64,000 nucleotides of DNA from Narcine bancroftii (lineage: Eukaryota): the NCBI RefSeq assembly GCF_036971445.1, contig NC_091477.1:12524001-12588000 (forward strand), given 5' to 3'. A model generated the notes under the pieces. That model had not been told where the DNA came from and did no database searches. It saw only the letters and a program-made list of their open reading frames with translations. The position numbers and the translations under genes are program-made. Shown in pieces: positions 41,101 through 44,100 of the stretch (position 1 is the first letter of the stretch; each line of letters begins with the position of its first letter).

Positions 41101-44100
41101 TATTTTGTGAGCATTTTGTGCTTCATTGGGCAGAGAATTCCACAGATTCAGTACCCTATGAGAGAAGCAGTAAGGAGAAGCAGAGAAGACAACCCACAGG
41201 ATGGTGACCATGGCAGAGGACTCGTGAGGGGTTTCTGCAGCAGGAGGATCCACACAGGAGGCAGGCTGTTGGTGACTCGAGGCAAGGAATCCATGCAGGC
41301 TGTGGGCTGCTGGAGATTGTGGTCAAGGAATTCACACTAGGCTGCAGATTGCTGGCGACTGGCTCAAAACTGGCTGAAGTGATATCAGGTGTCAGAGCTG
41401 GGATGTGAGAGTGTGCTGAAGAGTTCCTAATTGTATCAGGGGTTTGGACCTGAAGCTCAGGTTGCAATAGCTTGGAGTAGACTGTGTGGCTGCAGAGGCT
41501 ATGGGAGAGCTGGAGGTGAACCATGGACATTCAGTGATTCTGGGAGGAATTCTCTTTTGCTTCTCTTTCTCTGACTGTAAGAGGTACTTCAGGCAATTTT
41601 TGCTGATGGCAAATTTACCTGCCTTACAGCAGACAAAAGGCATTTTGTGAAACATGACTATTTTTATTACATGACAATAAATTGAATCTTGAATCTTTTT
41701 TTCAAGCAAGGAAACCTGAATTGCAGTGTAGTCTGAGTGCAGCTTCACCAGTACCCTGGACAGTTACAGCAGAACCTCCCTGCTCTTATATTAATTAATT
41801 CCAACAATGAAGGCTCACATCCCATTTGCCTTCTTGGTTCCTTGTTGCACGTGCAAGCTAACTCTTTGTGATTCATGTACAGGCACTCGCAGATCTCTGC
41901 ACAACAACATGCTGCAATTTTTCATGATTTAAATAATAGTTTGATTTTCTATTTTTGCTTTCAAAAAGGATGACCCTAAGGTCATCCTTATCACCACAAA
42001 ATTAATTCCATGACCACAGTTTCCAACTCTCTCTATCTTAGTCTCCCTAGAGCCTCGTCCTTCTCTTTTCTGATAGCTGAGACCAAATATCTGTGTGCCT
42101 ATAATTCTAAAATCACCTATATATCTCCCTTGCCCTAAAAATCTCAACATTCTTCTTCCTATTTTTCTTATCCTTCAAGCAGTTTCGTAAAACCTTACCC
42201 CCTCATCAACCTGTGGCACCTTCTATTTAACATGCTTTGAGAGTTAAGTGTTACATAAATTACACCTTTGTATTTATAATGTAGCATACGAAAAACAGGA
42301 AGTAGGTAATAAACAATTTCCCAGTCCTCAATAACCACAAACAAAAATTAACTGACAAAAATTAATGGGTAAAACTTAAAAATATACTGGTACTAACCTT
42401 AATGGGTAAAACTTAAAAATATACTGGTACTAACCTTAATGGGCAAAACTTAAAAATATACTGGTACTAACCTTAATGGGTAAAACTTAAAAATATACTG
42501 GTACTAACCTTAATGGGTAAAACTTAAAAATATACTGGTACTAACCTTAATGGGCATCCCAGTACAATGCAGTCCAAAAGGAAACAAACATCTTTTCCCC
42601 TTTAAACGCTGAAATCCTACAGAAAACTAGAAACAGACATTGGGGGTGGAGAGAAAAAACAAATCTTATCAATATATATTTTCAATAGATTTGAGTTTAT
42701 TTAACATAAACTGGTAATTAGTATTATTCTAAAGCCTGTGACATCACCGGAAAATATTACATGAACTTTCCCTTATTTTACATAGACTGGTTATCAACGA
42801 ACACCAGAATCCCTCATAATAAATATTACAAACTGAAAAATCCTATTTCTTCCTTGGACAGACGTTGCCTGCCTGCTGTGCATCTCCAATGCTTTATACT
42901 TTATTCTAGATCAATGTTTCACTGTCGCTCATCAGCCTATTTCACAAGAATATCACCCAAACTGCTTTACATTCCGTTCATTAAAAAATCTAGCAAAAGT
43001 TGAACATTCTCAGTCAAATTCACCTCAAAAATGCTATGAACTAATTACAGGACGATTTAGAGCATTAGAAAGATTTACCACTAACACTAATAGGAAGGAT
43101 AAACTGTATTAAAATGAACATTTTTCCAAGGATATTATACCTATTTCAGGCATTGCCAATACAACTGACAGAGAAATTCTTCAAGGAGTTAAAGAAAATA
43201 ATAAGGAAATTTTTATGGAAAGGGGGGAAACCAAGGATAGCACTAGATAAATTAACAGAATGGTATAAACAAGGAGGCTTACAACTGCCAAACTTTAAAA
43301 ATTATTATAGAGCCGCACAATTAAGATACCTATCAGATTTTTATCAAACAAGGGAAAAGCCAGATTGGACCAGATTAGAATTAGATAAAATAGGGGAAAA
43401 GATACCTGAACACATATTATATAAATGGGATGAAAAATTGGTACAACATAGAAGTTCTCCAGTATTACATCATCTACTCAATATTTGGAAGAAGATTCAT
43501 GTAGAAAGAAATAAAACAAATTATCAATTACCAAAACTAATATTGATGCAAAACAAGTTACTCCCTTTTACAATAGATAACCTTTCCTTTAGAGAATGGG
43601 AGAAAAAAGGGATTAAAAGAATAGAAAATTGTTTTTCAGGAAATAGATTATTATCCTTTGAACAAATGAAAGATAAATACAATATAACTCAAGATACAGC
43701 GCTGGCATATTACCAATTGAGATCCTACTTGAAGGATAAATTAGGAAGCAGTTTGAGTTTGCCAGAGGGAAGTAACTTTGAATATGTGATTACAGATACA
43801 ATGATAATCAAAAGATTTATAACAAATATGTATATTAAACTGCAAGAAAAGGAGAATGAGGAAACAAATGGTAAAACTAAACAAAAATGGGAACAAGATT
43901 TAAATATAAAGATAAAAAAGGAAACATGGGAGAAGTTATGCTCTGGAACGATGAGAAATACAATAAATACGAGGTTACGTATGATACAATATAACTGGAT
44001 ACACAGGCTATACATTATACCTCAAAAGTTAAATAAATGGGACCCAACAGTATCTGATAGATATTTTCGATGTAAAAAAGAAATGGGAACAAAAATGCTA

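Follow-up and report, generated by a model that had tools for sequence, protein, structure and literature searches.

A 37-bp minisatellite places five identical donor sites at the end of LARS1 exon 4 in Narcine bancroftii

Background

When a tandem repeat sets five identical 5' splice sites at the end of one exon, and every site but the first lies behind a stop codon, which of them does the spliceosome take, and does the number of units bear on the output of the gene? This question is raised by exon 4 of LARS1 in Narcine bancroftii, where a 37-bp minisatellite starts within the exon and runs into the following intron. The window in which we have analysed it, that is, the whole stretch of DNA under study, is 64 kb long (NC_091477.1, positions 12,524,001 to 12,588,000 of the forward strand), and its numbering is used throughout. 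Published work already covers the architecture, the NMD product and the question of dosage; no report of the Narcine LARS1 array was found in the open-access literature.

Results and discussion

The LARS1 gene and its exon 4

The LARS1 coding span (7988..50877, (-) strand) is made up of 32 exons with an intact reading frame of 3600 nt, whose translation is identical to the RefSeq protein XP_069754267.1 of Narcine bancroftii. The LARS1 introns have GT or GC donors and AG acceptors, the HLGH and KMSKS motifs are retained, and the protein is 91% identical to stingray and mobulid LARS1. A pseudogene or a gene under relaxed constraint was rejected, since the reading frame and the splice sites are intact. 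Substitutions unique to Narcine are somewhat more numerous than those of stingrays and mobulids (chi2 2.8-4.5), and not more numerous than those of skates.

Exon 4 (42546..42626, (-); 81 nt, phase 0-0), which directly follows the exon with the HIGH motif, encodes 27 aa (FSVG...MPIK) that match residues 72-98 of human cytoplasmic LeuRS (PDB 9w01, E 1e-11), and homologue searches led to cartilaginous-fish LARS1 proteins. The identification of gene and exon in the original prediction is borne out by the match to human LeuRS together with the exact 32-exon translation. Intron 4 (39435..42545, (-)) is 3111 nt long. XP_069754267.1, a protein model, joins exon 4 to exon 5 through the first donor and carries no isoform label among the 15 of 18 cluster members that were listed; NMD products would be absent from a RefSeq listing.

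Some minor features of the gene may be recorded here. Two changes in exon 3 (46594-46681, (-)) flank the HIGH motif, at positions where R and T are present in 80 of the 88 named motif-bearing homologues; the C is also found in Heterodontus and the S also in Rhincodon, both together only in Narcine. The RefSeq model (50806-50877, (-)) begins 22 codons ahead of the conserved MTERK start, and this N-terminal extension, absent in stingray and in most other entries, may be an annotation choice. Introns 27 and 29 (window 15007 and 12267, (-)) are both of the GC-AG type and both have GAG|GCAAGC at the donor.

Structure of the array

Tandem Repeats Finder called a repeat of period 37 on the (-) strand at 42362..42554, with 5.2 copies and 98% matches and without indels, the first monomer of which lies across the boundary between exon 4 and intron 4. 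A 23-nt core of the unit is present in the window in 5 copies with 0 mismatches, and no further site is found there even with up to 3 mismatches; five core copies were reached in 0 of 100 shuffles. All five donors are the same 11-mer, AAG|GTTAGTAC, over positions -3 to +8. The authentic donor (42538..42548, GT at 42545-42544), where the RefSeq model splices, is followed on the same (-) strand by pseudo-donors 2 (+37 nt; 42501..42511, GT at 42508-42507), 3 (+74 nt; 42464..42474, GT at 42471-42470), 4 (+111 nt; 42427..42437, GT at 42434-42433) and 5 (+148 nt; 42390..42400, GT at 42397-42396). The repeat call and the exact 11-mers confirm five identical donors produced by a 37-bp unit repeated five times, as had been proposed, and the proposed 8-bp direct repeat at the ends of the array was also recovered, CCCATTAA being present at both.

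Units 1, 2 and 4 are identical, and the sole internal variant is a substitution at position 28 of unit 3 (42444, (-)), an A to G change at -10 of donor 4. The exon has the same base at its own -10, and with the G the identity to the exon end runs over 11 nt instead of 9. Unit 5 differs at its final base, a T. The exonic copy of the 8-bp repeat (42547..42554, (-)) is the likely slippage seed; the terminal intronic copy (42362..42369, (-)) is followed by T, and therefore no sixth donor is formed. The unit, which holds 9 exon bases, is U-rich (27% GC), and its stretch from +10 to +28 (42518..42536, (-), in unit 1) has 11 U in 19 nt, located after one donor and before the next. With its first monomer over the exon-intron boundary and the donor reiterated identically within the intron, the array has two of the marks of a donor-spanning minisatellite.

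Origin of the array

We suggest that a young minisatellite arose by slippage between two CCCATTAA repeats lying 37 nt apart, an event that would have duplicated the final 9 nt of exon 4 together with the first 28 nt of intron 4, and that the array then grew by unequal exchange. Because the array begins and ends with this octamer, the one-unit ancestor would have had two copies of it at that distance. Just 2 of the 31 LARS1 donors are flanked by a direct repeat of at least 8 nt; as a sign that microhomology predisposes a donor to such growth this count is partly circular, a one-unit stand-in having taken the place of intron 4 in the scoring. As to the later growth, the last two units together with the 11 bases upstream of them are an exact copy, 84 nt in length, of the exon end plus the first two units, because donor 4 shares with the exon a G at position -10, where the other junctions have A; the chance that a random substitution would give the exon-matching base is, as a rough figure, about 1-2%. 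The simplest account of this exon-templated variant would be that a two-unit allele underwent unequal exchange with one of three or more units, and such exchange between alleles would imply that copy number varies. Derivation of the unit from a dispersed repeat was rejected within the window, where there is no other copy of it.

Four arrays with a period of 25-72 and three or more copies are located in the window, and an array placed randomly in LARS1 would include a donor in its first unit in about 2% of placements; cases that span a donor are therefore to be expected genome-wide. The three other arrays are a 25-bp minisatellite of 17 copies in LARS1 intron 1 (50185-50618), purine-rich in the transcript sense and 187 nt past the exon 1 donor; a GC-rich 61-bp minisatellite of about 16 copies (60047-60985, (+)), which starts about 50 nt past CAG|GTAAAA near 59998, probably the donor of the first exon of a gene in a CpG-rich stretch; and a 72-bp repeat of 3 copies with 92% matches (61552-61764), with a partial further copy downstream.

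The stop codon and the predicted truncated product

Read-through from exon 4 into the array adds 11 residues before a TAA (42510..42512, (-)) that occupies nt 34-36 of unit 1 and is contained in every distal-donor product. The protein would end at 110 aa counted from the conserved MTERK start, or at 132 aa if counted from the ATG further upstream with which the RefSeq model opens, so that the truncation at about 110 aa that had been announced holds on translation. That every distal donor adds a stop also stands as a fact, but not as a special feature of the array, since an in-frame stop comes within 37 nt in 25 of the 31 LARS1 introns (median 24 nt); on this count the stop codon as a designed feature was rejected. 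In the gene 16 latent donors, including the four of the array itself, score at least as high as the array donor, and 14 of them lie behind an in-frame stop. In human, the corresponding proportion of latent donors is given as over 98%, or 91% after filtering (PMC3510495). With 25 of 31 LARS1 introns and over 90% of human latent donors alike in this respect, a stop ahead of the distal donors is the default state of an intron.

The distal donors are latent 5' splice sites in the sense of intronic consensus donors behind an in-frame stop, and their predicted products share one feature with regulated unproductive splicing (AS-NMD), the stop falling in an extended exon 4 of 32, far upstream of the later junctions. 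A stop with 27 further junctions downstream should make the transcript an NMD target. Among the best 120 of 543 short matches there was no short protein above 90% identity, which is weak evidence, distal splicing and intron retention being indistinguishable in it. A separate latent donor, near 17723 and 38 nt into LARS1 intron 24 (17760-17644, 117 nt), has a higher score than the array donor and is reached without an in-frame stop; only 79 nt are left to the acceptor, which is too close to judge.

What distinguishes the five donors

By their sequence, all five donors can pair equally with U1. In the gene the array donor ranks 10 of 31 when U1 duplex energy is computed and 11 of 31 under a leave-one-out matrix; it matches U1 at 8 of 11 positions and the consensus at 8 of 9. 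Hiding of the distal donors by RNA structure was rejected: predicted unpaired probabilities are alike and low for all five in three window sizes. The distal donors would give exons of 118-229 nt, near the range of the LARS1 internal exons (54-226 nt), and size therefore does not exclude their use.

The sequence that precedes each donor does differ. When scored for exon-versus-intron 3-mers and 4-mers, with a model trained on the remaining exons and introns of LARS1 alone, the 28 nt ahead of donor 1 fall in the usual range (11 and 13 of the 30 other authentic donors have lower values), and the 28 nt ahead of donors 2-5 score below all 30 of them at both k=3 and k=4. On the downstream side, the 11 U between +10 and +28 of the spacer are equalled or exceeded in just 2 of the 30 other LARS1 introns. 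TIA proteins bound in a window of this type favour the upstream of two alternative donors (PMC2964331); the position of the U-rich spacer matches the TIA binding window, and TIA proteins may act here in the same manner.

Comparison with known donor-spanning arrays

The closest counterpart is the minisatellite of F7 IVS7, with 37-bp units in 5-9 copies, a first unit over the boundary and identical pseudo-donors, of which only the first donor is used (PMC1557585), a result repeated in a review (PMC6627357). When that donor was knocked out the next one was activated; minigenes with 1-12 units left splicing unchanged, as did raising the pseudo-sites to CV 91, competition being seen only at perfect consensus; and exon skipping grew as the usable donor moved away (PMC1557585). 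These assays relied on non-quantitative RT-PCR and 50 clones, with no NMD block seen in the methods (PMC1557585). Narcine shares with F7 the unit length, the spacing and the placing of the first monomer, and has 4 pseudo-donors, F7 having 4-8. The sequences are, however, unrelated, the F7 unit containing G-triplets and 4 exon bases, and the Narcine unit being U-rich with 9. The wild-type F7 donor matches 6 of 9 consensus positions versus 8 of 9 in Narcine, which is nearer the range where F7 pseudo-sites compete, although the computed U1 duplex of the Narcine donor is weaker. Some F7 pseudo-sites give no stop, whereas all the Narcine ones do, and donor use has been measured for F7, whereas the array of this cartilaginous-fish housekeeping enzyme is known from its sequence.

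For the 25-bp VNTR of ABCA7 intron 18, PMC5954066 describes retention of one unit in about 2% of transcripts, raised by cycloheximide and independent of length, and skipping of the next exon driven by VNTR length. As in Narcine, each unit there begins with a donor GT and retention of one unit leads to a premature stop and NMD; that array is, however, far longer and highly variable, and its length acts through skipping of the next exon, not through distal donors. Other minisatellites in which the donor is reiterated across the boundary are cited in PMC1557585, in the brief terms of that paper: LMNB2 (100 bp) and PDGF intron 4 (81 bp), with use of the first donor only, and CBS intron 13 (31 bp) and IFI6 (6-16) intron 2, with use of two pseudo-donors. 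All four have 10-25 copies, unlike Narcine; the position of the CBS repeat is confirmed in PMC2630376. Latent 5' splice sites as presented in PMC3510495 are, as in Narcine, intronic consensus donors behind an in-frame stop, but they usually differ from the authentic donor, whereas the Narcine ones are exact copies with identical downstream context. According to PMC10078293, 9537 human repeats associated with splicing have been catalogued.

Choice among the donors

Taking these observations together, we consider it probable that the array is a slippage-born minisatellite in which donor 1 wins, a small leak is cleared by NMD and the repeat itself is near neutral. Only donor 1 is preceded by exonic sequence, the other four having U-rich sequence of intron-like composition before them, and the U-rich spacer should help the donor before it and would offer no exonic enhancer to the donor after it. 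By analogy with human F7 intron 7, the spliceosome would take donor 1 in more than about 90% of the transcripts, and a small leak, amounting to a few percent and going chiefly to +37, would meet the stop after codon 110 and be degraded by NMD. The array would be close to neutral and would persist because donor 1 wins. The original prediction had offered either strong favouring of the first site or tuning of LARS1 dosage by copy number; the former has an experimental precedent in F7 IVS7 (PMC1557585) and is supported here by the upstream context, and for the latter there is no support in the Narcine sequence itself. The precedents for use of donor 1 are all mammalian, and its predominance in Narcine is presumed by extension from them.

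It can also be the case that the distal donors take a substantial share of splicing, in which case LARS1 output would fall with unit number or under stress through NMD, as in a dosage rheostat. The five donors are equal and of upper-third strength, two strong donors in PMC3413131 show downstream use that rises beyond about 30 nt and reaches about 100% at 45 nt or more, and the spacing of 37-148 nt in Narcine, if those assays apply, would speak against a silent array, as would the two pseudo-donors used in IFI6 and in CBS according to the introduction of PMC1557585. Heat and cold shock activate latent donors behind stops, up to 15% for CAD (PMC3510495), which is relevant to an ectotherm, and a title cited in PMC2630376 ties the CBS 31-bp VNTR to lower CBS activity. 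We nevertheless regard a substantial distal share as unlikely, for F7 with 1-12 units showed no change (PMC1557585), one-unit retention in ABCA7 was independent of length (PMC5954066), and the distal donors of Narcine are not preceded by exon-like sequence. An effect on exon definition, with exon 4 (81 nt) or exon 5 (138 nt) skipped in frame and a catalytically damaged enzyme from a transcript that escapes NMD, would fit the ABCA7 and F7 skipping described above (PMC5954066 and PMC1557585, respectively), the exon 4 acceptor, which is the third weakest of the 31 in LARS1, and introns 3, 4 and 5, all of which are in phase 0. Precisely exon 4 is missing in 3 of 102 named LARS1 proteins (present in 89, the search pattern not resolving 10), but none of the three entries is from Narcine, and gaps in annotation may account for them; the Narcine model includes exons 4 and 5, and the ABCA7 effect came with arrays of hundreds to thousands of bases, which leaves skipping very unlikely. 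One of these entries, XP_067851998.1 of Heptranchias perlo (1149 aa), lacks exactly exon 4, be it through an annotation gap or through real skipping.

The extra copies might, on the other hand, have been produced by assembly or polishing, for instance by merging a short and a long allele, and the exact copy that the last 84 nt of the array plus two bases make of the 84 nt starting at -11 in the exon is a trace that a mis-join could also leave. We give this a very low probability: there is no N within 26 kb of the array and no long duplicated flank, all 32 exons are intact, the same 64 kb hold three other minisatellites with diverged units, and an array of 193 bp would be within the reach of single long reads. 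The sole N run of the window (134 N) is in LARS1 too, in an intron that lies over 26 kb downstream of the array. A recursive ratchet, in which donor 1 would splice to a later AG|GT unit junction and regenerate an identical donor, making the distal sites harmless intermediates, is suggested by junctions that read ATTAAG|GTTAGT, the same as the exon end for 9-11 nt, and by distances of +74 to +148, which approach the shortest LARS1 intron (79 nt). The junctions are, however, poor acceptors, scoring 2.0-3.3 when merely 4 of 31 real acceptors are at 3.3 or lower; they have A at -3 versus C or T in 31 of 31 real acceptors, and other AGs are present in each unit. Recursive splice sites were thus rejected, AG|GT being present with a weak acceptor and A at -3, and we hold the ratchet to be extremely improbable.

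Wider meaning of the array

If donor 1 wins, as we favour, the array matters little beyond being a donor-spanning minisatellite outside mammals and in a housekeeping gene. Three models nevertheless clash at such a locus: from F7 the first donor wins, from duplicated-donor assays the downstream one wins beyond 45 nt, and from suppression of splicing the stop decides. The Narcine array combines a consensus match stronger than that of F7 with a spacer rich in U and a single stop ahead of all the distal donors, and one minigene series can therefore set the three models against each other. A more daring reading, which we judge quite unlikely, is that of a polymorphic and temperature-sensitive poison switch in an ectotherm, in which heat or cold would activate the four latent donors and LARS1 would be lowered by NMD according to unit number, the target being the synthetase that also signals leucine to mTORC1. 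If it were true that copy number or temperature shifts LARS1 output, this would be repeat-encoded dosage control on an essential enzyme.

Neighbouring features

An open frame of 344 codons lies antisense to LARS1 within intron 3 (43069-44103, (+)), 440 nt upstream of exon 4. A Pfam search of this frame gave no match; we take it to resemble the 3' part of an L1-type LINE ORF2. The gene that stands head to head with LARS1 is presumably NUDCD2. Its exon at 54102-54458 (+) encodes a CS domain (Pfam PF04969).
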